Below are positions 4,799 through 59,461 of a DNA stretch of 64,000 nt, piece after piece. The notes below the pieces were generated by a model that did no database searches, had not been told where the DNA came from, and worked only from the letters and a program-made list of their open reading frames with translations. The position numbers and the translations under genes were made by a program. The DNA is from a bacterium (GTDB lineage Bacteria > Hydrothermota > Tepidihabitantia > B3-TA06): assembly GCA_012517375.1 (NCBI GenBank), contig JAAYVC010000037.1, positions 3,485 through 67,484 on the forward strand, written 5' to 3'. Every line of letters starts with the position of its first letter. Within the stretch, counting starts at the first letter, position 1.

Positions 4799-5029
4799 AC
4801 CGCGATGTGGAAATACCTGTTAAAAACATGTGTCGATTATTGTGGGCAGCCCAGGCAAGAAGGATATTTTCAACATCTATCCCCCGAATTCTACAAACTT
4901 TTCAACAATTCTCTAGGAAAGTAAGTTGCACATGAAAGTTATTTATAATAAAATCCACTATTTCAACATTGACAACAACAACAACAAGAGTAAGATTCAA
5001 TTTATGAATGTTGCTGAATTAGAGGAGGA
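4799..5029 (+). other. AT-rich dnaA-dnaN intergenic region, candidate oriC/DNA-unwinding element
   Basis: 231-bp spacer markedly AT-rich relative to the flanks (tttataataaaatccactatttcaacattgacaacaacaacaacaag). Contains a partial DnaA-box-like ATCCAC. Confidence 0.35.
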
Positions 5030-6245: not shown

Positions 6246-6329
6246 GCCGAAGTGGTGGAATTGGCATACGCGGCGGACTCAAAATCCGTTGGAGCTTGCT
6301 CCGTGAGGGTTCGACTCCCTCCTTCGGCA
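6246..6329 (+). tRNA. tRNA-Leu (anticodon CAA)
   Basis: 7-bp acceptor stem GCCGAAG/CTTCGGC plus discriminator A. Anticodon loop CTCAAAA. Long variable arm (GGAGCTTGCTCCGTGA) typical of Leu. T-arm GGGTTCGACTCCC. CCA not encoded. Confidence 0.85.
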
Positions 6330-11970: not shown

Positions 11971-12145
11971 GAACAGCGTTTCTTTCGGGCTGCTTATGCA
12001 AACGTCTGGGCGACCCGAGACGGGTCGCTGCCGCGATTATTGACATGGGACTCTGTAAATCTATAATCAATCCTTGAATTCTGAAGGACTCTTCGGGTCC
12101 TCGTTTGAAATTTAATTCATAAAATCGGAAGGAGTCAGACAGCAT

Positions 12146-13528
12146 ATGAAGAAGTTCTTCAATTGGTTAGATAAAACCTTCGTGAAGCCTGTCGAGGAAT
12201 CAAAGATGTCCCTCGGCGCCTTCATTCTTATCGCCGCAGGCTACATACTCGCGCGCAATCTCTTTGAAGGCGCATTCGAATCCCTTCACCTCATAGGACT
12301 CTCCTCTATCACGCTCTTCGGGATCGAGGAGATGTTCCTGCATCTCATGTTCTCCTGGCTTTATTTCTTCATGATAGTAGCCATTCTCCTGAAATTTACG
12401 ACCGGACACGATATGAAGAAGATAACGCGCGTACTCCTGGCCTACTCCTTCATAGTGCTTATACCGCCGTTTATCGATTTCCTCTTTATGCCCGGCGGTT
12501 TCAGGCTTGCCTACCCGACCGATATAAGCATAGTCGGAAAGGTGATATGGTCTATGTTGAGGCCCTGGATACTCTTTAACCCGCGCATGGTCTATGAATA
12601 CTCGGCAAAGATCCCTTACGGAGGCTCCCCCGGTATGATAATAGAGGTCTTCGTCGCGTTGATTCTGATAATCGTTTACTCGTGGATCCGCACGCCTTCG
12701 CTGAAGCGCAGGATTATAGCCGTTCTGCTCACTCCTGCAATTCTTGCGGCGACCATAATCATAGCCGGCGGAGCGCAGGTGCTCGTATCCAATATCCCCG
12801 GAGACCCCCTTACCGGAAAATCGGTATACTTCACGGGCGGCCTCATAACATCCGCAACGCGCAAATACGCCCTCATCGTCTTAATCCCCTTCCTTATCGT
12901 TCTCTTCATCGGTCTTCTGCTCTACAACAAGCAAAAGACATTAAAGCTTGTAAAATCGATAGACCCTTTCAGCGCAATCCTTGCCGCCGTCGCCGCAGGC
13001 GCGGGCTTCCTTTTTGCATGGCTCGGTCTCAAGGACATACTTACCGGCGTTCCGAGAAGCCCTTTCGACTACGTTGCCCTTTTCGGTCTCTTAGTTATGG
13101 GCGCTGCGTCAGCCGTTACAAGGCTTTATCTTTCGCAAAGCTGGTCTGAGAAGAACTCCGAGGAGGATAAGAAAACCTTCCGGCGCGGGGCGTGGGGCAT
13201 GTTCATACTCACGCTGGCGCTCGGATGGAGTCTGGGGTACGCAAACCTGTTCATACTGCTCGTCTCGCTCGTATTCGGGCTGGTGCTGGCCGTACCTCCG
13301 CTGCGTCTCGAACGCTGGAGCGTGCCGTCATCCCTTGGCAACGGACTGGCCGTTTTCATGCTGGTCTATTGCGGATACTCGCTTTTCGCGACCGAGCGAA
13401 CCTTCAGTATTTTCCCATGGCAGCTCTCAATAGTCGTATTTGCTACACTGTGGCTTTCTTTCCTGGTCCGCGAACTCATAATAAGACATAAACCAAAGCG
13501 TATCCAGACGGGGGAAGCAGCCCAATGA
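12146..13528 (+). CDS. Polytopic integral membrane protein (>=10 predicted TM segments), unknown function
   Basis: 460 aa, highly hydrophobic throughout. Overlaps the next gene by 4 bp (operon with TPR protein). Confidence 0.5.
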   Translation: MKKFFNWLDKTFVKPVEESKMSLGAFILIAAGYILARNLFEGAFESLHLIGLSSITLFGIEEMFLHLMFSWLYFFMIVAILLKFTTGHDMKKITRVLLAYSFIVLIPPFIDFLFMPGGFRLAYPTDISIVGKVIWSMLRPWILFNPRMVYEYSAKIPYGGSPGMIIEVFVALILIIVYSWIRTPSLKRRIIAVLLTPAILAATIIIAGGAQVLVSNIPGDPLTGKSVYFTGGLITSATRKYALIVLIPFLIVLFIGLLLYNKQKTLKLVKSIDPFSAILAAVAAGAGFLFAWLGLKDILTGVPRSPFDYVALFGLLVMGAASAVTRLYLSQSWSEKNSEEDKKTFRRGAWGMFILTLALGWSLGYANLFILLVSLVFGLVLAVPPLRLERWSVPSSLGNGLAVFMLVYCGYSLFATERTFSIFPWQLSIVVFATLWLSFLVRELIIRHKPKRIQTGEAAQ

Positions 13529-14706
13529 ACGAAACGAATACAAAAATCCCGCCGCTCATTCTGATAATCGGTTCAGCGGCCGCGCTTGCCATGGCGGTTC
13601 TTCCGCCGCTCGTTCTCGGGGCCGCATTCTTATGGTTTATTACGCCTTTTCTCGGTCTCCTTCTTCTTGCCGGAGTGTTCGCGCGGCGTTCATGGCTCGC
13701 TTGCATCTCGGCAACATTGGAGCTTGCCGCTCTGGTTGCCGTACTTGCCAGGTTTCCGCTTTCTTTGTCCGCGGAGCAAACAAGGAACCTTTATTCCACG
13801 GGCCAGGTAGTAAAAGCCGACGTATACTACCTCCGCGCCGACTACGTAAACGCCCTTGCCGCTTACAGGCAAAGCATTTCATCGGGGTTAGAAGACCCCT
13901 GGCTTTACTACCAGATGGGAAAGTGCTACAACTACCTTGGTCAGAGCCAGCCAGCGTTTGAGACGTTCGTCTATGTAGACAAATATCCGCAAAAGGTGCC
14001 TCAGGAGTTGCTCAGGCTGGATTTTGCCCTGGCATGCATCAAGTCGAATTTCGAGGAGGAGGGAGCCAATGCATTCAAGGATGCGATAAAGTCGAACTAT
14101 AATCCAGGGTACTGCTACTATCAATTGGGCGTTTACTATACATTCAAGAGGGACCCCGATAAGGCTGAGGAGATGTTTTCAAACGCGCACTTTCTAGGCT
14201 ACCAGCGCTCGGAATGCTCATCCCTTCTCGGCGGGATAGCCGAAGGCCGCAAGGACTACGCAAAAGCGGAGAAGCTCTACAGGAGAGGCTTAAGGGAAAG
14301 CTTCGAGAACCTCACGCTATACGCAAAACTCGGCAGCCTTCTTCACCGCACGGGAAGGAATGACGAAGCGGTGTCAATCCTGCTCGACGGGTTCAATCTC
14401 TCCGCTTTGGTTCGGTACAATCCGCGCGCCGCCGCGATGATACTCAACAACCTGGGATTCGTTTACGCTGACCAGCGCAAGACAGGTCAGGCTATCATGG
14501 CGTTCAAGCAGTCGATACACACGGACGCAGGCTTCATGGAGTCCTACTACAATTTAGCCTACGTCTTAATGCAGGAAAAAAGGAACACCGAGGCGCTCGA
14601 GATTCTCAGGATGGCGCTTGATAAAGACCCGAACGATGCAACCGCCAGGGAGATGATAGCGCAGATCCTCGGATCAGGTAAGCCCCAGGATCAAGGAACA
14701 AGATAA
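13525..14706 (+). CDS. Membrane-anchored TPR-repeat protein
   Basis: 393 aa. N-terminal TM helices followed by multiple TPR-like repeats (AYRQSISSGLEDPWLYYQMGKCYNYLGQ.., AIMAFKQSIHTDAGFMESYYNLAYVLMQEKRNTEALEILRMAL). Confidence 0.55.
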   Translation: MNETNTKIPPLILIIGSAAALAMAVLPPLVLGAAFLWFITPFLGLLLLAGVFARRSWLACISATLELAALVAVLARFPLSLSAEQTRNLYSTGQVVKADVYYLRADYVNALAAYRQSISSGLEDPWLYYQMGKCYNYLGQSQPAFETFVYVDKYPQKVPQELLRLDFALACIKSNFEEEGANAFKDAIKSNYNPGYCYYQLGVYYTFKRDPDKAEEMFSNAHFLGYQRSECSSLLGGIAEGRKDYAKAEKLYRRGLRESFENLTLYAKLGSLLHRTGRNDEAVSILLDGFNLSALVRYNPRAAAMILNNLGFVYADQRKTGQAIMAFKQSIHTDAGFMESYYNLAYVLMQEKRNTEALEILRMALDKDPNDATAREMIAQILGSGKPQDQGTR

Positions 14707-14855: not shown

Positions 14856-16223
14856 TCACACTTTGTCATGTTTCATCTTGGGAAAGAATACTTGCTTTCG
14901 ATCGTCAACCACCGCCGCAACCACCGGGCTCTTCAGGATATCGTCCCAGATGAAGCCGAGCCCGTGCCTGGCGAACCGCTCCCTTATGAGTCTCGCAAAA
15001 CCCTTGAAGTAGATGTCTCTAGGCCTGTTAAGGTAAGCGATAATCGCATTGAGAAGGTATCTCATTTGAGCGGCGGAGATATGCGGATGGTTCCATACGA
15101 GGTGCTTTGCGCTGTAGTGACGGTAGTTTGTGTCCGTTATCCCGTAACGCATCCGGATGTCGTCCCATAAGGGCGTTTTTGGGAAGGGGGTCAGCACGTT
15201 AACCTGATGGGCGTCGAAACCCGCCTTCTTCACAAGCGCCGCGTCCTCCAGCGTCTGCTCTGCGGTCATGCCCTCGTAGCCTATCATATAGTAGACCATG
15301 CGGTACATATCGCCCTTCTCCCTCGTCTTTCGGGAAAACTCCATAATCTCCTCAACCTTCTGCTTCTTGTCTATGCTGTCCAGGGCGCCCTGCTTCATCG
15401 TCTCAAGACCAATAACAGGAAAACGCAGCCCCCGCTCGTACCAGGTTTCAAGATTTCTCAAGTAAATGCCTGCCCGCGATTGCGACCACCAGCGCAGGCC
15501 GTAGCGGGCAAAAAGTTCAGAAAGCTTGTCCGCGTAGGCAGGGAACGTTCCGAAGAGCTCGTCCATAACGAACACGTCCTTTATTCCAACCTTGCGATAG
15601 TGCTTCACGACCCGCTCGACGCTCTCGAAGTTGACTGTAAACCGTCTGTCCTCATATGCAGGCGTCTGGCAGAACGTGCACCTGAAGGGGCAGCCGCGCT
15701 CGGTGTACAAAAGACCCATCATCAGATAAGGAATTGAGCCCGGCTTGAACCTGAAAGGCATCATCAAGGAGGGATGTTCTACCTCCTCGTCCCGTACCCT
15801 GTATCCGAACGCCTGCGCCACCTGATCCTCTGCAGCGCCCGAAAAGACCCTGTCGCAAAATTCGGCAACGTGTCCGTCAAGCGCGCCGTGTCCGCCAGCC
15901 CATATCTCGCGAACCCCGTGCCTGCGAGCCTCATCCGCCATGCGCTCCACCTCGGCTATCTCGTTCTGAAAAAAGGAGAAGCCTACAACGTCCCAGCCCT
16001 CCTTGAGTCTCTCGACATATTCAGGCCACATAGGATACTCGAGTATCTCTATCTCAGGCACGTTCTGCTTCAGGAAGCGCAGCCCGAAGCCTATGCGTCT
16101 TGGATTAGAGATTCGTGGAACCCCGTAAACGTTCTCGCCTATGTAATCGAGATAATCGTCTGCGAAACGCCTGTAGGCGTTGCATAAAAGCACCTTTGGT
16201 GCAGTCTTCAATGCTCCTCTCAC
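14856..16223 (-). CDS. B12-binding-domain radical SAM protein (class B rSAM), paralog 1 of 4
   Basis: 455 aa. N-terminal B12-binding-like domain (~150 aa). rSAM cluster motif ERGCPFRCTFCQTP (CxxxCxxC). ~60% identical to the 17884-19212 paralog. Confidence 0.75.
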   Translation of the reverse strand: MRGALKTAPKVLLCNAYRRFADDYLDYIGENVYGVPRISNPRRIGFGLRFLKQNVPEIEILEYPMWPEYVERLKEGWDVVGFSFFQNEIAEVERMADEARRHGVREIWAGGHGALDGHVAEFCDRVFSGAAEDQVAQAFGYRVRDEEVEHPSLMMPFRFKPGSIPYLMMGLLYTERGCPFRCTFCQTPAYEDRRFTVNFESVERVVKHYRKVGIKDVFVMDELFGTFPAYADKLSELFARYGLRWWSQSRAGIYLRNLETWYERGLRFPVIGLETMKQGALDSIDKKQKVEEIMEFSRKTREKGDMYRMVYYMIGYEGMTAEQTLEDAALVKKAGFDAHQVNVLTPFPKTPLWDDIRMRYGITDTNYRHYSAKHLVWNHPHISAAQMRYLLNAIIAYLNRPRDIYFKGFARLIRERFARHGLGFIWDDILKSPVVAAVVDDRKQVFFPKMKHDKV

Positions 16224-16425
16224 GGTATCAGTCTAAAAATCCTGTATGCTAATCTTCTTCCTGCTCTTTATACATTCTACACCGTGTGCTTGCGCTGTCA
16301 AGACCTTGTTTGAGGTTATTCCTCAAGACTTACGCTGAGGATTGTCCGGGATTTGATCTTATATCATCTTCTTTGCACGTTAGATTGGTAAAAAACCTCG
16401 CCACCGTCTCTCGCACTCTCGTGTT

Positions 16426-17784
16426 TTAAGAACCGAGCCTCTTAAAGAAGATCTGCTTGCGGTCGTCGTACAGGCTGGCTGCAAGAGGTCCCTTGATGAG
16501 GTCGCGCCACACGAACTCGAAGCCTTTTTCGCGCAATCTCTCCCGAACGATCCGGGAGAAGGGTCGTATGTATGCATCGAATGGATTGTTGAGATAATTG
16601 ATGAGCGAAGCGCGCAGATAAAGCATCTGGGAGGGCGTTATCTCGGGATGGTTCCATACGAGGTGGCCGGTATCGAAATCCCTGTAATTATCCTTGATTA
16701 TCCCGTACTTTGAATCAAGCTCCTTCCAGAGAGGGGTCCCGGGAAAGGGAGTGAGTACGCTTACCCCGTGCGCATCGAAGCCCATGCGCTTGAGCTGTAC
16801 TGCGTCCTGGATGGTCTCATCCCGGCTCATGTTCTCGTAGCCTATCATCCAGTCCACTATCCTGTAGATGCCGGGTTTTTCCTTCGTTCTTTCAGCATAT
16901 TCCTCAATCTCCGCGGTCTTCTGGCGCTTCTTGATGATATCCAGAGACTTTTGAACGGTAGACTCGAGGCCTATCATGGGAAAGCGCAACCCCTTCTCGT
17001 ACCACTCGTCGAGATGGTCAAGGATAAGGGATATGCGCGACTGGGCCCACCATCGAAACTTGTATCTCGCGAACATCCCGGTGAGTTTTTCGGAAAGCCG
17101 GGGATTGTACCCGAAGAGTTCGTCCGCGATGAAAAGATCGGTAAGTCCCTTGCTCCGGTAGTGCTTAATGACGCGCTCGATGCTTTCTATATTTATGGGC
17201 AGGGGTCTGGTGTCAAGAGCGGGCGTCTGGCAAAAGCTGCATTCGAAAGGACACCCGTGCTGCGTGTACAGGAGGCCAAGCGTCAACAGAGGTATGTTGC
17301 CGGGTTTTATCGTACCCGGCCAGCACATTACCGGATGCTCTATCGAGTCGTCCGGGATGCGGTATCCGAAAACCCTGGCTACGGCGTCCTCTGAGGCTCC
17401 AGTAAAAACCCTGTCCACTATCCGGGGGATTGCAGGATTCAGCGCTCCGTACCCTCCCGCCCACAGCTCGCGGATTCCATGACTGCGCGCCTCTTCAGCC
17501 ATCCTCGCTATCTCCGCTATCTCGTTCTCGAAAAAAGTGAAGCCCACCACGTCCCAACCCTCCCTGAGTCTCTCGACATATTCAGGCCACATCGGATACT
17601 CGAGTATCTCGACCTCGGGAACGTTCTGCTTTAAGAACCTCAGGCTCATCGAGACCCGGCGGGGCGAGGCAACCCGGGGAAGGCCGAAGACCTGGCCTCC
17701 GATTACATCCCAGTAGTCGTTGCGGAATCGCCTGTAGGCCGTACACAAAAGAACCCGGGGGTTAGCGCTCAAAGCGCCTTTCAC
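16426..17784 (-). CDS. B12-binding-domain radical SAM protein, paralog 2 of 4
   Basis: 452 aa. Motif QHGCPFECSFCQTP. Colinear with the other three paralogs. Confidence 0.75.
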   Translation of the reverse strand: MKGALSANPRVLLCTAYRRFRNDYWDVIGGQVFGLPRVASPRRVSMSLRFLKQNVPEVEILEYPMWPEYVERLREGWDVVGFTFFENEIAEIARMAEEARSHGIRELWAGGYGALNPAIPRIVDRVFTGASEDAVARVFGYRIPDDSIEHPVMCWPGTIKPGNIPLLTLGLLYTQHGCPFECSFCQTPALDTRPLPINIESIERVIKHYRSKGLTDLFIADELFGYNPRLSEKLTGMFARYKFRWWAQSRISLILDHLDEWYEKGLRFPMIGLESTVQKSLDIIKKRQKTAEIEEYAERTKEKPGIYRIVDWMIGYENMSRDETIQDAVQLKRMGFDAHGVSVLTPFPGTPLWKELDSKYGIIKDNYRDFDTGHLVWNHPEITPSQMLYLRASLINYLNNPFDAYIRPFSRIVRERLREKGFEFVWRDLIKGPLAASLYDDRKQIFFKRLGS

Positions 17785-17883
17785 GGCACCGACCTGCTCA
17801 ACGATGCACCCTTCTCAGGCTGACAGAAAAAAGAAATCGAGTTGAATTCCATCCCTTGCTTACGTCTCATAACGACCCGATGC

Positions 17884-19212
17884 TTACTTGCCTTGCTCCA
17901 TGAGATTTCTCACCATGGATTCAAAAGGTGTTCGAATTATATCTCGCCATACGAACCTTAGACCTTCCGCTGTAAACCTCTCCTTTACGAGCCTTGCAAA
18001 ACCCCTTGCGTATATGTCGAAGGGATTGTTGAGATAGGATATTGCGAGCCTTAAGAGATAATGCATCTCGGCTGGACTTATATGAGGGTGGTTCCAGACC
18101 AGATGCTTCGCGTCGTAGTGCCTGTAGAACTTATCTCTTATCCCGTACCTGGATTCGGTCTCGCTCCACAACGGCGTTTGGGGGAACGGCGTTATCACGT
18201 TTACCTGAAAAGCGTCGAACCCGACTGACTTGAGCGCGCGGACGTCGTCCCAAAGCGTCCGGGCGTCCTGGCTCTCGTAGCCTATCATGTAGTAGACCAT
18301 GCGGTACATGGCTTTCTTTTCACTCGTCCTCCGCTCGAACTCGACTATCTCCTCTATCCTCTGTTTCTTGTCGATTGAATCGAGAGAGGACTGCGACATG
18401 GCCTCGACCCCTATCAGAGGGAATCTGAGCCCGCGCTCGTGCCAGGTATCAAGATGCCTCATGAAGAGCGCCGCGCGCGACTGCGCCCACCAGCGGAGCT
18501 TGTATCGGGCCAACAGAAGGGTCAGCCTGTCCGCGAACCCGGGGCTTATCCCGAAGAGCTCGTCGAGCACCAGGACGTCGGTCACACCGGTCCTTGAGTA
18601 CTCGCGTAACACCCTCTCGATGCTGTCTATGTTGACGTTAAACCGGACCTTGTCGTAGGAGGGCGTCTGGCAGAAAGTGCATTTGTACGGGCAGCCGCGC
18701 TCGGTATAGAGAATTCCCATCCTTAGATAAGGGATATTGCCCGGTATGAAATCCATAGGCCATATTATCGACGGATGCAGGACGTCCGTTACCCTTTTAC
18801 CGAAGACCTGTGCGACAGCGTCCTCCGACGCACCGGTGAAGACCCTGTCCACCTCTCGCGGTACCGCCTCGTCCAGCGCTCCGTACCCTCCGGCCCATAT
18901 CTCCTTCACTCCATGCCTGCGGGCCTCGCGAACCATCTCGAAGACCTCCGCAATCTCGTTCTGGAAGAACGAGAAGCCGACTACGTCCCAACCCTCCTTA
19001 AGCTTTTTAACGTAGTCCCGCCATAAGGGGTACTCGAGTATCTCAAGTTCGGGCACGTTGCGCTTAAGGAACCGGAGCGCCGGCGACTGTTTGCGCTTGA
19101 GCGAAACCCTCGGTTTAAGATACACGTTCTCGCCCACATAATCCAGAAAGTCGTCCCTGAATCGCCTGTATGAGGTGCAGATGAGAATCCTCGGGTTGCT
19201 TGAGAGCGCCAT
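17884..19212 (-). CDS. B12-binding-domain radical SAM protein, paralog 3 of 4
   Basis: 442 aa. Motif ERGCPYKCTFCQTP. Confidence 0.75.
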   Translation of the reverse strand: MALSSNPRILICTSYRRFRDDFLDYVGENVYLKPRVSLKRKQSPALRFLKRNVPELEILEYPLWRDYVKKLKEGWDVVGFSFFQNEIAEVFEMVREARRHGVKEIWAGGYGALDEAVPREVDRVFTGASEDAVAQVFGKRVTDVLHPSIIWPMDFIPGNIPYLRMGILYTERGCPYKCTFCQTPSYDKVRFNVNIDSIERVLREYSRTGVTDVLVLDELFGISPGFADRLTLLLARYKLRWWAQSRAALFMRHLDTWHERGLRFPLIGVEAMSQSSLDSIDKKQRIEEIVEFERRTSEKKAMYRMVYYMIGYESQDARTLWDDVRALKSVGFDAFQVNVITPFPQTPLWSETESRYGIRDKFYRHYDAKHLVWNHPHISPAEMHYLLRLAISYLNNPFDIYARGFARLVKERFTAEGLRFVWRDIIRTPFESMVRNLMEQGK

Positions 19213-19215
19213 CCT

Positions 19216-20631
19216 CTAAACCCGTCCATCCAGGAAGACCTGCTTGCGCTCGTCGTATGCGAGGGAATGCAGGAAAGGTCTGGCAATATCGTCCCACAGG
19301 AAACCGAGGCCTTTCTTGTAAATCCTCTTCTGAGCCATTCTTATCACGCCAGCCCCGTAGTTCTTCATCGGTATGTTGAGGGAAGCCATGCCCACACGCT
19401 TGAGAAACTCCATGCTCCCGGCAGAGATGCGAGGGTGGTTCCAGACGAGAAACCGAGCGTCGAACTTGCGGTAGTCCTTCTCGAATATCCCGTAGCGCTC
19501 CTTAATCTCGAACCATTGAGGCGTCTTCGGGTAGGGGGTCAGCACTGTGAGCTGGTGGGCGTCAAAGCCAATCTCCCTAAGAATCTCGTAGTCCGAAAGC
19601 ACGGACTCGACCGTATCCTCCTCATAGCCTATCATGTAGAAAGCCATTGTGAACACCTTTCGCTCCCTGGTGGCGCGCCTGAACTCCCTCATCACATCAA
19701 GACTCGTCCGCTTGCCAATCCGCTTCAATATCTCGTCGTTCACGCTCTCGACCCCGAAACCTACGTTGACCATGCCCCGCTCGGTCCAGGAATCTATGTG
19801 CTTTAAGGTCAAGTCGGCCCTTGACTGCACCCACCAGTGAAACCCGTAGCGGGCAAGCATATCGAGCACCTGTTCCGAATGAGAAGGGAACGTATAAAAG
19901 GTCTCGTCGAGTATAAAAAGCTCATTTATACCGTGGGAGCGGTAGTATCTTAAAACCTCCTCTATCGACTCAAGAGGCAGTCTTGCCGGATGAGGCGAGT
20001 GTACGGGAGTCTGGCAGAACGTGCACCTATAGGGACATCCGCGCTGGGTGAAGAGGAGCCCTATCTTCTTGTAAGGCACGGCTGGGGGCAGGACAACCCT
20101 GACAGGTATAACAACCGGAGGGTGCAGGGTTCTTTCAAGCTTCCTGCCGAAGCATTCCTCAAGAACCTCTGCCTCTACGTACCCGTACCAGATTCTGTCT
20201 GCAAACCCCTCCGCCTCCTCCGATAACCCGCCGTAGCCGCCCGCCCATATCTCCCCGACCCCCTGCCTGCGCGCCTCCTCCACCATCTCCAAAATCTCTG
20301 CCAGATCGTGCTGGAAGAACGAGAAGCCCACGACATCCCACCCTTCCCTGAGCTTTGCCACGTACTCATGCCACAGGGGAAACTCCATAATCTCGAGTTC
20401 AGGCACGTTCTGCTTCATGAACCTGAGAGAGGTTGAAACCGTTCTTATGAAACCGAAGCGCGGGGTGCGGAAAAAGTTAGCGCCAACGGCATCGTAATAA
20501 TCACGGGGGCTGTGCCTGTAGGCGGTTGTCAATAAGATTCTTGGCGAGGAAGTCAAGGGGCGCGGGGAGGGCAAGGAGGGCGAGGAGCTTGGGGGCATTT
20601 CAGCCGAGACTCCCTCTCGCGATGGACTCAA
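19216..20631 (-). CDS. B12-binding-domain radical SAM protein, paralog 4 of 4 (most divergent; Pro/Ser-rich N-terminal extension)
   Basis: 471 aa. Motif QRGCPYRCTFCQTP. N-terminal 35 aa low complexity (PPSSSPSLPSPRPLTSSP), so the true start is uncertain. 3-bp gap to the downstream paralog. Confidence 0.7.
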   Translation of the reverse strand: MSPSREGVSAEMPPSSSPSLPSPRPLTSSPRILLTTAYRHSPRDYYDAVGANFFRTPRFGFIRTVSTSLRFMKQNVPELEIMEFPLWHEYVAKLREGWDVVGFSFFQHDLAEILEMVEEARRQGVGEIWAGGYGGLSEEAEGFADRIWYGYVEAEVLEECFGRKLERTLHPPVVIPVRVVLPPAVPYKKIGLLFTQRGCPYRCTFCQTPVHSPHPARLPLESIEEVLRYYRSHGINELFILDETFYTFPSHSEQVLDMLARYGFHWWVQSRADLTLKHIDSWTERGMVNVGFGVESVNDEILKRIGKRTSLDVMREFRRATRERKVFTMAFYMIGYEEDTVESVLSDYEILREIGFDAHQLTVLTPYPKTPQWFEIKERYGIFEKDYRKFDARFLVWNHPRISAGSMEFLKRVGMASLNIPMKNYGAGVIRMAQKRIYKKGLGFLWDDIARPFLHSLAYDERKQVFLDGRV

Positions 20632-20678
20632 AATACCCGGTTATTCCCGATGATTTTACAGCCCTCAAATCAGACACC

Positions 20679-22439
20679 CTACTTATCAATGGGCAGAAGA
20701 AGCCATGAGGTGTAATCCGCGACTCCCAGGTAGGCTTCTGATGCGGCAACGGAGAGGGCTTTTCCGGGTGTATCTATGTAGCCGAGAATCCGTGGCGAAT
20801 GAGGATCACTCACGTCAACCTTCAGCACGCCCTTCTCGCCGCAAGCCAGATACAATGTGGAGCCAGAGAGCGCGAGACCATAAGGTCTTGAACCAAGCAT
20901 GGTGAAAGAAAGCTGTCCGGGCTCTTTCGGATTGCTTATATCGAGCGCCGCCAGAGCGCCTATCGAGTCGGCAACGTACAGCCTGTCCTGTTCAACCAAA
21001 AGCGACCGGGGGCTTACTGTCCCGGGATACAGGGAAAGCGTTACCGGCGTTTCGCCCTCCTTCCTTAAAGCCACTACCCACAGTCCAGAATCCGGATCTG
21101 CCACGTAGACGATGGAATCCTTAACGGCAACGTCAACCGCCTTGATTCCTTCAAGCTTGCCCTTCTCCTTCAGGGGCCCGCAAGGGCATATCCAGAGCAC
21201 CCGCAGCCCTTTTTCGCCCGCCGCATCAAGAATGAGTTCATTGGAGAGCGCGATTCTCGAAAGGTCTCCTGCCTGGTTTATGGTGAAATCCGGTTTCGTA
21301 ACAGGGAACTCCTTCAAGGAAAAGATGCTTAGCAGGGAGCGTCCGGGATCAACCACGTAAAGATTGGTTCCGGAGAGAAGCACGCCGGCGGCGTTATCGG
21401 GCTTCGGGTCAGCGAAACCGACGACGAGCTTTTCGGGCTCGGGCTTTACAACCTTTGCACCGTCCCTGCCCTGCGCGATAGCCCAGAACTCGCCGCCCCT
21501 TGCCGTGTGAACGGAGGGAGCATTCTTGGGAAGTCTCTTCGTGATCTCCATGTTCGCGAAATTCTTTCCCTCAAGGAATACGATTCCTTTGTCCCTGAGC
21601 GCAAGATAAAAGCCTTTCTTTGAGGGCAGGATATCGGCCACATATCCTTCAGCAAAGCCTCGGGAAGCGTCAAGCCTTTTTCCTTTGGCATCGAATACGG
21701 CATATCCTTGATAACCCAGCGCCGCAAACAGTTTCTTCGACTGAAAACAAAGCGCCACTGGTGAAGCGGGCGCATCAAAAACACTTTCCTCTTTTGGCTC
21801 CTTAGGGTCCTTCAGCGAAAAGACCGCTATCTTTGACTCGCTTAATCCCGCATAGAGCCTTGAATCGCCTGCGGCAAGGGTTTTTACTCCCGGAAGAGAA
21901 GTCTCCTTAATGATTTTCGGTGCTTTTTCGCAGGTAATTACATATATGCTCCCGCCTGCGGCGGCGTAAAAATAACCATTCCAGAAGACGATGCTTTCAA
22001 CCTTTGAACCGAGATTGACACTTGCCGGTGCATCGTTCTTTGAAGACAAGTAGATAACGGCGAATAAGCCGGATTCTGTTCCTGCGGCAACGAAACCCTG
22101 GCCGCAAGAAAGCGCCGTTACTTCTGAACCTATCTCATAACTTCCAAGATTAGAGCCTGACGCGTCGAACAAGGCGACTGATTCTGCGTCAGAAAGACAG
22201 AGCTTGCCGTCGTCGCACGAGCGGACTTTTCTCGAATAACCGAGGGTAGGGAAATGTCCGACCGCTTTAAGCTCCGTATCCATCGCTGCAAGACCGTATC
22301 CGGAAGCGGCATACAGCCTGCCGCCCATCTCGACCAGATTCCAATAATCACCCGATATAAAATGACTGGCGGCTCCCTCGGGCAGGATACTTTTGCCTTC
22401 CTGGACCCCGAAAAGGAACGTAAGTATCGAAAACAGCAT
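20679..22439 (-). CDS. Exported beta-propeller repeat protein (LVIVD-like repeats), paralog A
   Basis: 586 aa. N-terminal hydrophobic signal (MLFSILTFLFG). Recurring ~40-aa repeats with hydrophobic-x-V-x-D cores (IVYVADPDSGLWVVAL, LYVADSIGALAALDISNPKEP). Conserved WICPCGPLKEKG motif shared with paralog B. Confidence 0.6.
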   Translation of the reverse strand: MLFSILTFLFGVQEGKSILPEGAASHFISGDYWNLVEMGGRLYAASGYGLAAMDTELKAVGHFPTLGYSRKVRSCDDGKLCLSDAESVALFDASGSNLGSYEIGSEVTALSCGQGFVAAGTESGLFAVIYLSSKNDAPASVNLGSKVESIVFWNGYFYAAAGGSIYVITCEKAPKIIKETSLPGVKTLAAGDSRLYAGLSESKIAVFSLKDPKEPKEESVFDAPASPVALCFQSKKLFAALGYQGYAVFDAKGKRLDASRGFAEGYVADILPSKKGFYLALRDKGIVFLEGKNFANMEITKRLPKNAPSVHTARGGEFWAIAQGRDGAKVVKPEPEKLVVGFADPKPDNAAGVLLSGTNLYVVDPGRSLLSIFSLKEFPVTKPDFTINQAGDLSRIALSNELILDAAGEKGLRVLWICPCGPLKEKGKLEGIKAVDVAVKDSIVYVADPDSGLWVVALRKEGETPVTLSLYPGTVSPRSLLVEQDRLYVADSIGALAALDISNPKEPGQLSFTMLGSRPYGLALSGSTLYLACGEKGVLKVDVSDPHSPRILGYIDTPGKALSVAASEAYLGVADYTSWLLLPIDK

Positions 22440-22454
22440 CTTTCTTCTCCTGAA

Positions 22455-24215
22455 TCAATTGATTGAATACAGTTCAACGGCGTACGGAGTCGAAACCAGC
22501 AAACGCTGTCCGGTTAAGCCTACGCCTCTTGCGCCGTATACGTCTATCCTCGAGATAATCCTGGGTTTTGCCCTGTCGCTGATATCGAGAACGTATACAC
22601 CCTCCTTGCCCGCAGCCACATAAAGCGTATCGCCTTTAATCGCAAGCGCCGAAGGCGTGCCGTCAAGCTCCAATGCAGCCTCTTCCTTGAGTTTTGAAGG
22701 TCTCGATGCGTTAATCAATCCCAGACCGCCCTTCTTGTCAAGACCGACAAGAAGATTCCCTTCAAGGTAAAGCCTGTCGTACGTTCTGGAAAGATCAGCG
22801 CTTGATACGGTTTCGAGTTTTGTGCTGTCCTTCCAGGAAACCGTATAAATCTTATTGCCTGAACCCGAGACAAGTACGAGCCTTGTATCGGGTATAATCT
22901 TTACGTCGAGCGCGCGGCCTTCAATCCCAAGCCTGCCCAGCTCCTTGAATGGGCCGCACGGGCAGCGCCAGTACGAACCGACGCCTCTTGTATCCTCGGC
23001 GGTGAGAACGATTTCTCCTTCGGCATCAAGACCAGAAAGCATGGACTCGTACTGAATGAACGAGCGCCTTTCGGGCCGAGAGGGGTCTTTTATATCGACT
23101 ATCTTGAGCAGGTTGGTTGCGGTAACTGCATATATCTGCGTTCCGAAAAGGTACAAAATCCTCGCGTCATCAATATCCTTATAGGCTCCGAGATAAGCGA
23201 GCGTATCGCCTATGTTTATCGTCCTTATCCCGCCCTGTCCTACCGCGGCTACGGCGATATCTCCCACGCAAAGAAGCTCGTAACCGTCGCCGACACTCTT
23301 GTAGAAGATTCCGTTCAGGAAAGGCGGGCCTATGGAAAGGTCAACCTTTCCGAAGCCCTGGGTGGTCATGACCAGGAGAAGAGAGTCCTTAAGCGCGAGG
23401 CTGGTTGCCAAGCCGTACATATCCATTTCCTGGGAAAGAAGGGGTTTGCGAGGTTCCGCAATGGAAAAAATCAAGAGATCGGCCGTGCCGGCCGCGGCGG
23501 CAAGTCTGTCCTTGTAAGCATCCAGCCTTCTTATCTCTCCTTTCGCTTCAACCTTCGCGACTACCTTCGCGGAGTTTCGTTTGGGTTCAACTACCCACAG
23601 TCCTTCGTCTCCTGCTGCAAGATAGATGATATTGTTCGCGGGAAAAACGTCGAGAACGGCCGGGTCGCCGTCTACAGACAGCTTCACGCACTCAACCTTT
23701 TTTTGAGAGAAGTCGACGGCATAAAGACCTGCGGTGTCGGATGCGAGATAAAGCGTTGCGCCCGAGGGGACAATTCTCGCGGGCGGAGCAGCAAGCATCA
23801 CGGGAGACGGCTCAATCTGCGCTCCCGATGAAAGGTCTATTCCGTAAAGTCTCAGTGAATCATCCGCGAACCACAGCGTATCTCCATCAAGAGACATTGC
23901 TGACACCGCTTCGTCAAAGATTGTTGCCGCATCTGTGACCTGTTTATCGGCTGGGTCTAGCGTTAAAGCCGTTATGCCTCTCGAACCTGCGACATAAAAT
24001 GTGCCGTCGTAGCGGACAATGGTATGATTCCTGCCTGGAAGGAGTCTATCAGAAAGGCGAAGCATGTCCGATAATCTGAAAGCGGTAAAGCCTCTTCCGT
24101 CAGCCATGTAAATAGCCTCGCCATCCATTACGGAGGACGAGAATTCGCCGCCGACAACCAAACCGGTTTCGTATTCGACATTGCCCAAGAGAGGCAGAAG
24201 CAAGAGAACCGACAT
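22455..24215 (-). CDS. Exported beta-propeller repeat protein (LVIVD-like), paralog B
   Basis: 586 aa. Signal peptide (MSVLLLLPLLG). Same repeat organisation and CPCGPFKELG motif as paralog A. 15-bp gap to paralog A. Confidence 0.6.
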   Translation of the reverse strand: MSVLLLLPLLGNVEYETGLVVGGEFSSSVMDGEAIYMADGRGFTAFRLSDMLRLSDRLLPGRNHTIVRYDGTFYVAGSRGITALTLDPADKQVTDAATIFDEAVSAMSLDGDTLWFADDSLRLYGIDLSSGAQIEPSPVMLAAPPARIVPSGATLYLASDTAGLYAVDFSQKKVECVKLSVDGDPAVLDVFPANNIIYLAAGDEGLWVVEPKRNSAKVVAKVEAKGEIRRLDAYKDRLAAAAGTADLLIFSIAEPRKPLLSQEMDMYGLATSLALKDSLLLVMTTQGFGKVDLSIGPPFLNGIFYKSVGDGYELLCVGDIAVAAVGQGGIRTINIGDTLAYLGAYKDIDDARILYLFGTQIYAVTATNLLKIVDIKDPSRPERRSFIQYESMLSGLDAEGEIVLTAEDTRGVGSYWRCPCGPFKELGRLGIEGRALDVKIIPDTRLVLVSGSGNKIYTVSWKDSTKLETVSSADLSRTYDRLYLEGNLLVGLDKKGGLGLINASRPSKLKEEAALELDGTPSALAIKGDTLYVAAGKEGVYVLDISDRAKPRIISRIDVYGARGVGLTGQRLLVSTPYAVELYSIN

Positions 24216-24235
24216 GTTTGGGTTACCTGTGTATG

Positions 24236-24997
24236 TTATTGATTCTGGATAAATTGACTGCGAATGTCGAACTCCCTGTTCATCCTGAATGGAAGAGGTT
24301 TTTCAAGTAATTCCCGGTTTTTATTTCTCTTAAAATTTACATCCGTAGTCTTGATGACCGTCAAATTCGTGCCCGGAATGATGGAACCGGCATAAAGCTC
24401 TATCTCCTTAGGCCAGGTCTTACTGCCCGACTCGGCAAACTCCTTGAAAACGATCCTCGAGGCTTCATTTTGAATGCTTATAGGCTGATGGGTCGCGGCG
24501 TCGTATTCGTAAACGTTTCCGGACTTGGCCTTAATGACAAGTTTGTTTTCCTGATTGTAAAATGTGTCGATGTCGCCTACGCCTCCGGGCAGGAGATTAA
24601 AAACAGAAAGTATATCTTCCGGAGAAAAAGGAATCGAGACACCGTAGCCGCTCTTCTGATTCAGGAGTGTAGTAAGCTTAACGCCCCTGATGAAGTCGCA
24701 GATCCATATGGTATCGGCTACGCCCTTGAAGAATCCCGCAGGACCTCCGCCAGCCGAGCGAATATCGAATATGAACGAGCCCTTTTCCCAGTAAAAAAAA
24801 TAGGGGAGGAGCATCTGCGAAACTCCTGAGCTGTCTTTTGCCTCCAGGGTGCCCATTATTGAGAGGTAGTCGGGCGGTTTTTCACTTGTTAGGAACTGCA
24901 ACTCCTTGGGCATGTCCGCCGCGGCGTTTACTATCGTGAATGCAAGAAGCAGCCCGAATAGTATTGTGGCTGCCTTGAACTTGAAACTTTGATTCAT
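24236..24997 (-). CDS. Secreted hypothetical protein
   Basis: 253 aa. Clear signal peptide (MNQSFKFKAATILFGLLLAFTIVNAAAD). First gene of the co-directional minus-strand cluster. Confidence 0.5.
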   Translation of the reverse strand: MNQSFKFKAATILFGLLLAFTIVNAAADMPKELQFLTSEKPPDYLSIMGTLEAKDSSGVSQMLLPYFFYWEKGSFIFDIRSAGGGPAGFFKGVADTIWICDFIRGVKLTTLLNQKSGYGVSIPFSPEDILSVFNLLPGGVGDIDTFYNQENKLVIKAKSGNVYEYDAATHQPISIQNEASRIVFKEFAESGSKTWPKEIELYAGSIIPGTNLTVIKTTDVNFKRNKNRELLEKPLPFRMNREFDIRSQFIQNQ

Positions 24998-25114
24998 TAT
25001 TATCCTCCTAAAAACGAGTCGTGAATGCTTAAAAGAACAATTATAGAAGAGCCTCGAGATATGTCAAGCCGGGATCCTTGCCTTAAGATTATTAAAAATG
25101 TATGCTTAGAGAGT

Positions 25115-25474
25115 CTAATATGCCTCTAGGCCTTCTATTTTGAGGCCTGGGTTTTTTGCAGCGAGCTTTTTCAAAGTATCTAAAACTTCCCAGGTTTTAC
25201 CCCAGGCAAGGTTTGTGTCGATTATTACGGCTATGGCACCTTTTTTCTGGCCCGAGTAACGTTTCCATAAAAAATCAACATCTATGGCGCTGTCGTTAAG
25301 CGCCAGACCAGCTTTGGTCACGCGCAGCGTATCCTGTTCCAGCTTCTCTTTCGATTGGTTCTGGAGTATCTTCATGGTTACAACCAATGCCAGAAGCACT
25401 GCCGCAGCTATAAGCACTGGTCCTTGAAAAAAACTCAGGCGCATAAGCCTGTTCCTGCGTTCGGGCAAGCTCAT
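25115..25474 (-). CDS. Small membrane-anchored hypothetical protein
   Basis: 119 aa. Single N-terminal TM (VLIAAAVLLALVVTM). 117 bp upstream of, and co-directional with, the cluster. Confidence 0.4.
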   Translation of the reverse strand: MSLPERRNRLMRLSFFQGPVLIAAAVLLALVVTMKILQNQSKEKLEQDTLRVTKAGLALNDSAIDVDFLWKRYSGQKKGAIAVIIDTNLAWGKTWEVLDTLKKLAAKNPGLKIEGLEAY

Positions 25475-25776
25475 GCCGTTATTATAGGCATTTTGTTCCC
25501 GAGGTCAAAGAAACCATGAATCCCAAGAGCAAGAGGGGTTGACACAAAGGAATTATTTACTATCATTAATAATAGATTTTAACAGGAGTTGTTTTAAAGA
25601 GGGCGTCCTGCCCGAACACAAGAACCTTTCTTTAATGGAGCATGTGGACGGGTTTCCCCTTTAAAACAATTACAAGGATTATAATTAAAAAGGCTGATTG
25701 TCTGACCTGCTAAGACAATAAAAAAAATCGTCTTCGGTGGTGTTTTAGTGAAATTACTATCTGGAAGGAGGGCAAA

Positions 25777-26337
25777 TTGCCTGGAGTCAGAGGCAATTCC
25801 TTCGCCACCATAAACAGGTGGCTGGGTCAGAATCTGAGCGTTGAGGATTACCGTGAGTTAATCTCATCGATGAGGCCTCCAGTAACGCGCATTCTGACGA
25901 AACCTGAGGGGTGGTCGTGGTATCCCCTTGAGTATCTATCAGAGATCCTCCTCAGTCTGAAGGATTCCAAAAATCTCCGCAACGGCGAAACGCTAGACCA
26001 GCTTGGAAGGTTCCTGGCCGATGAGGACATGGGCGGCGCGCCAAAGACAACAACATCCTTTATGCCGATGCCGAGGGTGCTTCCCCGGGTTCCCTTTCTC
26101 TGGTCAAGGTCAATGGACTGCGGCGATTTCAATATCCTTCTCGTTTCGGAATCGGAGAACAAGGCTTCTATCTGTCTTTCAGGATACGACGGAGGACCCA
26201 TGCACTGCGCGCTCATCCGCGCTTGGCTCGAGCGCACGTTCGAGCTTATGAGCGGCGGCAAGGTCAGCGTTGAAGAAACCTCTTGTCGCTACGCCAACGG
26301 CGGCAACGCCTGTCACTGGGAAGTGAGCTGGGAATAG
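25777..26337 (+). CDS. Hypothetical protein (Cys-containing C-terminus)
   Basis: 186 aa, no recognised motifs. Preceded by an AT-rich intergenic region with a TTGACA element. Confidence 0.4.
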   Translation: MPGVRGNSFATINRWLGQNLSVEDYRELISSMRPPVTRILTKPEGWSWYPLEYLSEILLSLKDSKNLRNGETLDQLGRFLADEDMGGAPKTTTSFMPMPRVLPRVPFLWSRSMDCGDFNILLVSESENKASICLSGYDGGPMHCALIRAWLERTFELMSGGKVSVEETSCRYANGGNACHWEVSWE

Positions 26338-26424: not shown

Positions 26425-27579
26425 TCAACGGAAGGAGAGCATCTTTTCCTTCTTAGCTCTTACCCCTTCTATTCTAATTTCGATGATGTCCATTTTGACA
26501 AGCGAATTAAGATCGCGAGAAATAGTTTTTGCGGTCTTACTTGCATAGGATTCGGCCACTCTGGGGCTGAGTTCGCGAATTTCGGATTTCGGAATGATTT
26601 GTCCCTTATTTGAAATAGCCAAAGCCAATTGTCGTTGCCTTCTAGCCGTTTTCCCCTTCTTATCTCTGAATGCTTCGTGTACATAATCCTTCCATGCGAT
26701 ATCTAAAACCTCTATAGAAACCTTTTGCATCTGTTCGCCCAACCCATCCAGAAACCCTTCTATTGCATACTGGATGAAGGGTATTACGTTTCCGCCGGAT
26801 TTTGAAGCTTGGTCAAGATGTTTGTAATACTCATTTCGGGTTTGATTGTAGTGGTTGCTTAGAAGATGTGCAGCAATTGTCGGTATACCAGCATCTAATA
26901 ATATCTGAAACTCCACCAATCTTGCGGTTCGGCCGTTTCCGTCACCGTAAGGATGTATCCACGCCAGATAAAGATGCGCGAGGACAGCTCTTATCAAAGC
27001 AAATGCGAGTTTGTGCCCCTTGGGCGCCCTGGAACGTTCTTGATTGAGCCAATCACACAGGCGTTTTAACAAGTATTCGCAATCATCTGGGGGCGCAGCA
27101 CGGTAACGGACAAGTTCAACCCCGACAGAATAGTTTCTTATCTTACCAGGAACTATTTGTTCGGGCAATTCTAAATTCTTTAGGACCAGATCATTAAACT
27201 CGTTGATTTTCTTAACAGATAGAAGCCCGCGATTGGTCCCCGTTAATAGTTCAGTTCCAATGATATTGCAGGCTTCAATTATATTGTTTATTTCTTGAGA
27301 AAGATACTCTTTGGAAGGAGGAAGGCTAAGCCTCCCTTCAACAAGTTTTAAGGCATCTTCCTCTGTAAGTGTATTCCCCTCAATAGCAGTTGTAGCTAAA
27401 GCCCCCTTGGCTAGATATAACTCATGCAATCTTTTAGCCGTTGCTGGACGTAGCGGCAAGTTTGCTAGATATTCGCACTTGGCTTGCGCTTCACCAAGCA
27501 TTAACCACAAATCATGCCTAGCTCGGCCGAGGTCGAGTGTAAATGTCAACCACGGATGTGTCTTTTCAAATGTCCGCAC
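26425..27579 (-). CDS. Fic family protein (AMPylation/filamentation domain) with N-terminal inhibitory motif and C-terminal wHTH-like domain
   Basis: 384 aa, GTG start. Fic motif HPYGDGNGRTAR (variant of HPFx[DE]GNGR). Inhibitory-helix motif TAIEGN ([ST]xxxE[GN]). Lower GC and AT-rich flanks (27580-27720). Confidence 0.85.
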   Translation of the reverse strand: MRTFEKTHPWLTFTLDLGRARHDLWLMLGEAQAKCEYLANLPLRPATAKRLHELYLAKGALATTAIEGNTLTEEDALKLVEGRLSLPPSKEYLSQEINNIIEACNIIGTELLTGTNRGLLSVKKINEFNDLVLKNLELPEQIVPGKIRNYSVGVELVRYRAAPPDDCEYLLKRLCDWLNQERSRAPKGHKLAFALIRAVLAHLYLAWIHPYGDGNGRTARLVEFQILLDAGIPTIAAHLLSNHYNQTRNEYYKHLDQASKSGGNVIPFIQYAIEGFLDGLGEQMQKVSIEVLDIAWKDYVHEAFRDKKGKTARRQRQLALAISNKGQIIPKSEIRELSPRVAESYASKTAKTISRDLNSLVKMDIIEIRIEGVRAKKEKMLSFR

Positions 27580-27747: not shown

Positions 27748-27776
27748 TTGACAACCTCCACCTCCTCCCCTATAAT
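27748..27776 (+). promoter_or_regulatory. Consensus sigma70 promoter TTGACA-17-TATAAT driving the cobalamin riboswitch/TonB receptor
   Basis: TTGACA 27748-27753, 17-bp spacer, TATAAT 27771-27776. Perfect consensus hexamers. Confidence 0.55.
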
Positions 27777-28015: not shown

Positions 28016-28078
28016 CCACCCATTCCGGGCCAGGATGGGGGTGTGGTTATCCTAACTCTTACAACTTGGAGGTTTACA

Positions 28079-59415: not shown

Positions 59416-59461
59416 TAATCCTCCTTGGAGGTTAAGTGACGTTTACTAAGCGCATGCGATT

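Follow-up and report, generated by a model that had tools for sequence, protein, structure and literature searches.

Why do four tandem genes for radical S-adenosylmethionine (SAM) enzymes lie directly behind genes for two beta-propeller proteins and a secreted protein? We addressed this question in a window of 64,000 nucleotides from a bacterium of the Hydrothermota (contig JAAYVC010000037.1 of assembly GCA_012517375.1, positions 3,485 to 67,484); unlabelled positions are those of this whole stretch, and loci from other genomes and metagenomes are given by L numbers. The radical SAM array was shown to be an accessory, present in zero to five copies at the 3' end of an envelope operon that is itself stable and whose flanking partners are conserved. 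Its enzymes form a small, discrete and unnamed family that is common to anaerobic Bacteria and Archaea. We tentatively propose that an envelope lipid (prenyl-derived or other) or glycolipid is tailored by these enzymes and that its handling in the periplasm falls to the secreted protein and the propellers.

Gene content of the cluster

Seven co-oriented open reading frames (ORFs) were found on the minus strand between 14856 and 24997, as the original prediction, made from the sequence alone, had described: four paralogous radical SAM genes (R1-R4), two paralogous propeller genes (BP1 and BP2) and the gene of the secreted protein, S. In the direction of reading, the order is S (24236-24997, 253 amino acids (aa)), BP2 (22455-24215, 586 aa), BP1 (20679-22439, 586 aa), R4 (19216-20598, 460 aa), R3 (17884-19212, 442 aa), R2 (16426-17784, 452 aa) and, as the last gene of the array, R1 (14856-16223, 455 aa). 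R1-R3 are of one type, and R4, the first radical SAM gene after BP1, belongs to a distinct clade. The longest ORF of R4 extends to 20631 (471 aa); a start at Met12 (20598) gives the 460 aa of the database protein P0001 and is the likely one. From R1 through S, the intergenic gaps measure 202, 99, 3, 47, 15 and 20 bp, in agreement with the 3 to 200 bp that had been expected. In the public record of this metagenome-assembled genome (proteins NLI97907-NLI97917, locus tags GX441_045xx), the products are annotated just as 'radical SAM protein' or 'hypothetical protein', and the best-named relatives come from candidate division WOR-3.

An accessory array behind a stable operon

The original prediction had been made to depend on whether this neighbourhood is conserved in relatives. 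The outcome was mixed. Synteny of the propeller and secreted-protein genes with radical SAM genes was found in about eight independent relatives. The order S-BP2-BP1 followed by radical SAM genes recurs with a single radical SAM gene in L001, two in L009, three in L100 and five in L002 and L098/L099, compared with four in the window. An R4-type gene stands directly after BP1 in all six co-oriented arrays, and the R4 orthologues in this position (L001, L002, L009, L099 and L100) are 72-86% identical to R4. The remaining array genes are of the R1-R3 type or are extra R4-like copies; R1 is 82% identical to its orthologue L099_r3, R2 is 69% identical to L099_r4, and R3 is 65% and 66% identical to L002_r2 and L099_r2, respectively. 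R4-like genes at 54-58% identity also occur in other contexts (L101 and L016). R4 is the conserved founder of the array. R1-R3 arose by lineage-specific duplication within a second clade, which stands alone in other phyla.

The array can also be lost, which speaks against obligate coupling. Eight metagenome contigs, representing about six distinct loci (L088-L092 and L095-L097), hold S, BP2, BP1 and the flanking genes c8 and c9 intact, with just 360-700 bp between BP1 and c8. These intervals contain no Ns and hold radical SAM fragments (L088:12492-13187, also in L089; L090:7820-8179; L091:8106-8530; L092:3013-3394; L095:12337-12937; L096/L097:11729-12384). In the relics, the N-terminal part of an R4-type gene runs directly into the C-terminal part of an R1/R2-type gene, and at least two relic shapes exist; in L088, R4-type residues 39-74 (67% identity) abut R2-type residues 359-451 (58% identity). 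Judging by these junctions, the relic looks like a deletion footprint that runs from within the first gene of the array to within its last. Because the relic contigs keep S-BP2-BP1, and because the radical SAM family exists in many phyla without the propellers, the seven genes do not form a single, indivisible pathway.

The conserved unit proved to be wider than the seven predicted genes, as it also includes c9, c8, c12 and c19. The c9-c8 pair is convergent toward the radical SAM array. Its first gene, c9 (12146-13528, plus strand), encodes a polytopic membrane protein of 460 aa with about 10-12 hydrophobic segments and without any match in Pfam or NCBIfam. The second, c8 (13525-14706, plus strand), overlaps the end of c9 and encodes a membrane-anchored tetratricopeptide repeat (TPR) protein with two to three N-terminal hydrophobic segments followed by the repeats. 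Genes orthologous to c9, at 46-69% identity, border the array or what is left of it in L002, L009, L011, L016, L021, L088-L097 and L098-L100, and c8 is kept alongside. On the other side, c12 (25115-25474, minus strand) encodes a protein of 119 aa with a single N-terminal membrane anchor and has orthologues in L002, L009, L088, L093, L096 and a TA06 genome (L003), whose family member was obtained from the protein search. The divergent gene c19 (25777-26337, plus strand) encodes a soluble protein of 186 aa with a weak C-terminal match to V4R (PF02830, E 1.2e-5, under its cut-off). Orthologues of c19 that are 50-53% identical were found in L003, where the gene is directly upstream of the TA06 radical SAM gene, and in L009, L088 and L096; c19 is also present in L100. 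Thus c12 and c19 also flank the lone radical SAM gene of a genome without the propellers. In L093 and L021, the set of c9, c8, radical SAM gene, S and two propeller genes is rearranged yet adjacent, and the radical SAM genes of L021 belong to a third, UbiA-linked clade that is nearer to archaeal sequences.

A sigma-70-type factor with regions 1.2, 2, 3 and 4 is encoded at 10456-11970 (plus strand), and its residues 36-85 form a PDZ-like segment just under the Pfam cut-off. The gene of an HtrA-type protease (8934-10418) adjoins it, and the same pair, with a PDZ match, recurs in L100. Beyond the cluster, a radical SAM/SPASM protein ending in SYFSVWW (32806-33810, minus strand) is 59% identical to a protein whose gene (L003:14466-15467) lies 3 kb away from the family member of TA06, which may be a further remnant of synteny inherited from a common ancestor.

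Promoters and transcripts

Near-perfect sigma-70 promoters in this genome coincide with gene starts. A site that matches the consensus at 12 of 12 positions (TTGACA-16-TATAAT; 25040-25067, minus strand) lies 43 bp upstream of S, and a second (TTGACA-16-TAGAAT, 11 of 12; 16274-16301, minus strand) lies in the 202-bp gap upstream of R1. A promoter scan from S to R2 found no site comparable with that of S. Because consensus sites precede S and R1 and none lies between S and R2, two transcripts are likely, one running S-BP2-BP1-R4-R3-R2 from the site at 25040-25067 and the other carrying R1 alone. A perfect sigma-70 consensus also stands ahead of c9 (12040-12067, plus strand), c12 has its own promoter (25481-25508, minus strand), and further sigma-70-type sites precede a Fic-domain gene and a riboswitch that are described below.

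Elsewhere in the family, the TA06 and Stahlbacteria genes each have their own strong promoter. A sigma-70 promoter was the sole DNA shared upstream of family members; an Rfam scan upstream of members in seven loci found no regulatory RNA, including cobalamin or SAM riboswitches, and one long gap contains a transfer RNA (tRNA) gene.

The radical SAM enzymes

R1-R4 are 43-63% identical to one another. R1 shares 63% identity with R3, 57% with R2 and 45% with R4, which is the outlier of the four at 43-45%. All four match PF04055 at 39.7-76.2 bits against a cut-off of 29.5 (R1, 52.8 bits), which places them in the radical SAM superfamily. The C-x3-C-x2-C signature occurs in each of them within GCP[FY]xC[TS]FCQTP, between residues 174 and 206. 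The expected identity of about 45-65% and the motif itself were borne out; the arginine that had been given ahead of GCP is absent from R2, which reads HGCP (HGCPFECSFCQTP).

The AlphaFold model of R4 (mean predicted local distance difference test (pLDDT) 92.9) shows a class-B layout, with an N-terminal Rossmann-like domain, a radical SAM barrel and a C-terminal helical domain. Its best fold matches in the PDB, in full-length alignment, are AprD4 and then TsrM, MgmA, CysS and OxsB. AprD4 (PDB 6FD2), the radical SAM 1,2-diol dehydratase from the pathway that makes apramycin, is also the best PDB match by sequence, with E 2.5e-15 over the radical SAM core compared with 2.4e-6 for the runner-up. 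The structural match (Foldseek E 4e-18, TM 0.64) covers the same three-part architecture, and in both proteins the N-terminal Rossmann-like domain is without a recognisable cobalamin-binding signature. However, identity to AprD4 is about 17%, the N-terminal domains cannot be aligned at the sequence level, and the locus has neither an aminoglycoside context nor an AprD3-like partner gene.

The class-B architecture that had been predicted for R1-R4 is thus confirmed at the level of a structural model, but the predicted B12-binding domain was not found. PF02310 (B12-binding) has no match at E <= 0.01 in R1-R4, and precomputed matches record it for one of 120 homologues. A profile of the N-terminal domain searched against the PDB found no cobalamin-binding domain; the sole match was 4Q37, the N-domain of an uncharacterised radical SAM protein (E 0.024). 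According to a 2026 review, homologues of AprD4 and ArsL sit in the similarity network for radical SAM enzymes dependent on B12, yet do not themselves bind cobalamin (PMC12931638). The sequence evidence therefore leans against cobalamin dependence of R1-R4. In addition, the enzymes lack an auxiliary-cluster domain of the SPASM or twitch kind, and their only conserved cysteines are those of C-x3-C-x2-C.

Placement of the enzymes in a well-characterised family with a known substrate, such as BchE, would have counted against the original prediction; Pfam, NCBIfam, PDB sequence and PDB fold searches assign them to no characterised family. Their NCBIfam matches reach at most 75 bits against cut-offs of 251-775, and nearly all are confined to the radical SAM core. 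The best of these core matches are to PhpK (74.7 bits, cut-off 600), HpnJ (70.5, cut-off 577.6), BchE (65.6, cut-off 481) and HpnR (52.8, cut-off 650). The curated cut-offs of the HpnJ, HpnR, BchE, PhpK and ladderane B12-radical SAM families were not reached, and the AprD4-family model NF033070 scores 60.8 bits with R4 against a cut-off of 500 and has no match to R1-R3.

Distribution and contexts of the family

A profile search of 1.84 billion representative proteins returned just 188 at E <= 1e-30. About 45 full-length clusters at 50% identity score above about 280 bits, and the next scores fall to about 175 bits. When one genome per species was scanned, 489 family matches were confirmed, the best 80 of which include WOR-3, Stahlbacteria, Zixibacteria, Coatesbacteria, Acidobacteriota, Desulfobacterales, Verrucomicrobiia, Eremiobacteraceae and Limnocylindrales and, at 38-44% identity, Methanothrix, Thermoplasmatota and Hadesarchaea. 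Members usually stand alone or in tandem pairs (pairs occur, e.g., in Methanothrix, Hadesarchaea, Stahlbacteria and Desulfatibacillaceae). No universal partner gene emerged when 1,290 ORFs from 87 loci were clustered.

Some clades nevertheless adjoin genes of lipid metabolism. In L012 and L021, radical SAM genes and the gene of a UbiA-superfamily prenyltransferase form operons of overlapping genes in the order rSAM-rSAM-UbiA(-rSAM), and in L013 the UbiA gene lies between two radical SAM genes (L012:9983-14438, L021:6827-10394 and L013:81-4304). L021 also has S-BP-BP and c9-c8 genes besides its UbiA-linked radical SAM genes. In Thermoplasmatota, a geranylgeranyl-reductase-family gene lies 40-57 bp downstream of the radical SAM gene in L038 and L061 and is convergent with it in L059 (L038:3897-6123, L061:5842-8413 and L059:8715-10972); in two Hadesarchaea loci (L027 and L032), such a gene is at most 6 kb away. 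In L101, an operon runs from a PlsC-type acyltransferase via a PI-PLC-like protein to an R4-like gene (54% identity) at its end. The UbiA and geranylgeranyl-reductase contexts weakly favour a role of these enzymes in tailoring a prenyl or acyl envelope lipid.

Other contexts were also recorded. In Methanothrix (L030, L044, L047, L055, L062, L070, L073, L075, L082 and others), two members of about 460 and 490 aa form a conserved tandem and fall into two deeply separated clades in a rough neighbour-joining tree. Their neighbours are DUF2240, a pair of large secreted proteins, a glycosyltransferase of type GT2 and a phosphomannomutase-like gene. Secreted or anchored propellers of other families, which have no C-P-C-G-P motif, lie beside family members, namely NHL in Zixibacteria and PQQ_2 in Zixibacteria and Hadesarchaea (L017:3416-6602, L024:3645-5784, L004:7813-9462, L027:6592-8019 and L032:6645-8114). 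Their recurrence may be due to chance in propeller-rich genomes. The window encodes two arylsulfotransferase-like proteins (57730-61093, minus strand) with FlgD-Ig or type IX secretion C-terminal sorting domains, and the R4-like gene of L101 is likewise flanked by arylsulfotransferase-like genes.

S and the double propellers

The secreted protein of 253 aa had been predicted correctly, as S has a classical signal peptide. All 12 S orthologues also have signal peptides, and two carry a lipobox-like L-x-G-C. The model of S (pLDDT 63, predicted template modelling score 0.56) is of moderate confidence because the protein collection holds only five clusters, and it was built from five sequences; the family is very rare, with these five clusters among 5.8 billion proteins. 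In this model, S is an open antiparallel beta-barrel of the LolA/LolB superfamily of carriers, whose fold accommodates the acyl chains of lipoproteins and lipids. S has no match to the Lol models in Pfam or NCBIfam, and it differs from known carriers of this fold (LolA/LolB, Porphyromonas gingivalis LolB/DUF4292 and LolA3, DUF1329 and 3BK5) in that identity is 8-12% and no LolCDE genes are adjacent.

BP1 and BP2 are 28% identical. Both pass the cut-off for LVIVD (PF08309; 47.3 and 32.4 bits, respectively, against 20.2), and both carry CPCGP at residue 418, so the description of two paralogous LVIVD-like propellers with this motif holds. A profile of the propellers matched PQQ/BamB-type repeats at residues 65-275 and LVIVD repeats in the C-terminal part. 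That is, the N-terminal half resembles BamB/PQQ-like propellers and the C-terminal half LVIVD propellers; unlike these, BP1 and BP2 fuse two propellers in one protein and have no lipobox and no PQQ-enzyme catalytic signature. The extended motif, W-x-C-P-C-G-P (residues 416-422 of BP1 and the same position in BP2), is invariant in ten BP1- and BP2-type proteins of about 20-25% identity, except for one C-S-C variant. No annotated counterpart of this motif was found in the searches made.

Proposed envelope-lipid tailoring and its alternatives

In the proposed mechanism, R1-R4 would work at the cytoplasmic face and would use a 5'-deoxyadenosyl radical to tailor an envelope lipid, either in its hydrocarbon part or in its head group. 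The substrate would most likely be a prenyl-derived lipid, and less likely an acyl lipid or a glycolipid. The paralogues may act at different positions or chain types, as do archaeal GrsA and GrsB, and S and the propellers would handle the modified lipid, or lipoproteins carrying it, in the periplasm. Coupling would be facultative, so that the envelope module works without the enzymes. The chemistry could be methylation, for which cobalamin is needed, or a cobalamin-free rearrangement, dehydration or desaturation, and the evidence from sequence leans to the latter.

We base this proposal on the predicted co-transcription, on an association that persists through rearrangements and three radical SAM clades, and on the lipid-binding fold modelled for S. 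It is further based on the UbiA, geranylgeranyl-reductase and acyltransferase contexts and on the precedent of class-B-type radical SAM enzymes that act on archaeal lipid tails. Several characterised enzymes that tailor such tails (Grs, Gmm, the glycerol dialkyl glycerol tetraether (GDGT) methylases, and Ted) have been described as B12-binding radical SAM enzymes (bioRxiv 10.1101/2025.10.20.683597). These and HpnP, HpnR and HpnJ share the domain architecture of R1-R4, and the action of GrsA and then GrsB in series resembles the tandem arrays of the present family. In addition, the family occurs in GDGT-making Archaea and in Acidobacteriota that make branched GDGTs, and some of its clades are linked to UbiA or geranylgeranyl reductase. 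Grs, Gmm, Ted, Tes and Mss were compared with R1-R4 by distribution and gene context only. In contrast, the models of bacterial HpnJ, HpnR and BchE score 34-71 bits with the enzymes of the window against cut-offs of 481-650, and R1-R4 lack PF02310. Methanothrix is rich in the family and is not known to make ringed or methylated GDGTs. Gms, which is defined by a COG4001 domain and rooted with an AhbD outgroup, looks like a different kind of radical SAM enzyme, and Mss was reported from a different set of taxa.

Several observations weigh against lipid tailoring. The cluster in the window holds no lipid-synthesis gene, and the two enzymes nearest in sequence (AprD4 and HpnJ) have sugar-type substrates rather than hydrocarbon chains. 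A Pfam scan of 143 immediate neighbours in about 60 loci found no family more than three times; the lipid theme therefore rests on few loci, and these belong to clades other than R1-R4. On the periplasmic side, the fold of S comes from a model of moderate confidence, and export of BP1 and BP2 is predicted solely from a conserved, short and uncharged hydrophobic N-terminus. The envelope module does not need the radical SAM enzymes, since the array has been lost from loci in which S, BP2 and BP1 are intact. Finally, synteny is wide (the sigma factor with its PDZ segment, HtrA, c9 and c8, as in L100), and adjacency could be simple inheritance.

This last point leads to the alternative that survives best, which we regard as somewhat unlikely. 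The radical SAM genes would be adjacent by descent, with no functional tie, and would act on an RNA, protein, cofactor or metabolite common to anaerobes. S and the propellers would form a module for outer-membrane biogenesis or lipoprotein sorting, and the slot between BP1 and the TPR gene would tolerate duplication and deletion. The wide synteny conserved in L100 and the eight contigs with relics only are consistent with this explanation. It also agrees with the stand-alone or paired family members of Methanothrix, Acidobacteriota, Zixibacteria, TA06, Stahlbacteria and Desulfobacterales, which have no recurrent partner, and with the separate strong promoters of R1 and of the TA06 and Stahlbacteria genes. 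However, R4, R3 and probably R2 share the promoter of S, with gaps of 3-99 bp, and the R4 clade stands immediately behind BP1 in six arrays, the R4-like genes of L101 and L016 being the exceptions. Moreover, the adjacency outlasts the inversions in L021 and L093 and involves three radical SAM clades.

The original prediction had favoured a different chemistry, namely stepwise, cobalamin-dependent C-methylation or C-C coupling on a large lipid, served by a riboswitch-controlled importer. The class-B fold, the cobalamin enzymes TsrM, MgmA, CysS and OxsB among the top structural matches and the weak NCBIfam matches, most of which are to B12-dependent families, are compatible with it. The riboswitch and the receptor are also real: a cobalamin riboswitch (RF00174; 27785-28017, plus strand; 52.2 bits against 31.5) lies directly ahead of the gene of a Plug/TonB-dependent receptor (28043-30067, plus strand), by which the organism would import corrinoids. 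But the pair has its own promoter of perfect consensus (27748-27776, plus strand). A Fic-domain gene (26425-27579, minus strand), whose promoter is just as perfect and stands back-to-back with that of the pair, separates the pair from the cluster. The receptor was absent from the flanks of the close relatives L001 and L002 and from those of L098-L100 and L088-L097. Because it lies on the other strand, beyond the Fic gene, under its own promoter, and is absent from the relatives, the riboswitch-receptor pair is uninformative on the cluster, and the proposed link to a high corrinoid demand falls away. PF02310 is missing from R1-R4 and from 119 of 120 homologues, the N-domain profile points to no cobalamin-binding structure, the closest match, AprD4, binds no cobalamin, and family members elsewhere, scanned in seven loci, have neither a cobalamin nor a SAM riboswitch ahead of them. 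There was no specific support for stepwise C-methylation, and we consider this explanation improbable.

Slightly less probable still is that R4 and its paralogues modify the propellers before export, e.g., at the cysteines of W-x-C-P-C-G-P. By analogy, an anaerobic sulfatase-maturing radical SAM enzyme modifies a neighbouring sulfatase. The motif is the sole invariant block between BP1- and BP2-type proteins that are otherwise 20-25% identical, R4 is predicted to be co-transcribed right after BP1, and PQQ_2 and NHL secreted propellers adjoin family members in Hadesarchaea and Zixibacteria. However, those propellers do not have the motif, most family members have no propeller neighbour, and the enzymes have neither a SPASM or twitch domain nor an extra conserved cysteine. 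The relic loci, which were found via this motif, also keep it without an adjacent intact radical SAM gene.

A cluster for a ribosomally synthesised and post-translationally modified peptide (RiPP) or another small molecule, which the tandem radical SAM genes common in RiPP loci might suggest, or a corrinoid-capture system with propellers like BtuG of Bacteroides, a corrinoid-binding propeller encoded beside BtuB, is very improbable, as no conserved ORF of at least 15 aa was found in the gaps between or upstream of the radical SAM genes in the window, L001, L002, L003, L004, L006, L009, L099 and L100 (in line with the predicted lack of a precursor gene), no peptidase, transporter or RiPP-recognition gene is present, and the propeller module is never beside BtuB in relatives.

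Envelope-lipid tailoring can also be extended to a bolder form, which we consider unlikely as it stands. In this form, the family, which would have gone unrecognised so far, would tailor prenyl-derived or membrane-spanning lipids across Archaea and Bacteria, and in WOR-3-type bacteria it would be wired to periplasmic delivery to the outer membrane. The candidate delivery parts are the LolA/LolB-like carrier, the two double propellers and the polytopic membrane/TPR pair. Overall, what the original prediction had observed is confirmed, and its interpretation is supported in part. We did not find the gene assemblage described in the literature searched, including searches for LVIVD with radical SAM and for LolA with radical SAM and propeller.

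Other features of the window

The genes dnaA and dnaN lie at 3476-6133 (plus strand), so that roughly 10-20 kb separate the cluster from what is probably the origin of replication. The window also has a tRNA-Leu(CAA) gene (6246-6329).

Significance

Whatever the function of the enzymes, the locus clearly illustrates how an enzyme array can grow to five copies or shrink to a fused relic while the operon next to it stays stable. It also cautions against deducing B12 dependence from a class-B architecture alone. If the enzymes do tailor an envelope lipid, the family would add a new activity to the radical SAM enzymes that shape membrane lipids, and the WOR-3 cluster would provide a first indication of the periplasmic handling of such a lipid. 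Such lipids serve as environmental and palaeoclimate biomarkers, and several steps of their bacterial biosynthesis are still without enzymes. Should the wider form hold, in which tailoring is wired to delivery to the outer membrane, the cluster would represent a new pathway of lipid modification and transport in a phylum without cultured members, and a candidate source of unexplained lipid variants in the environment.

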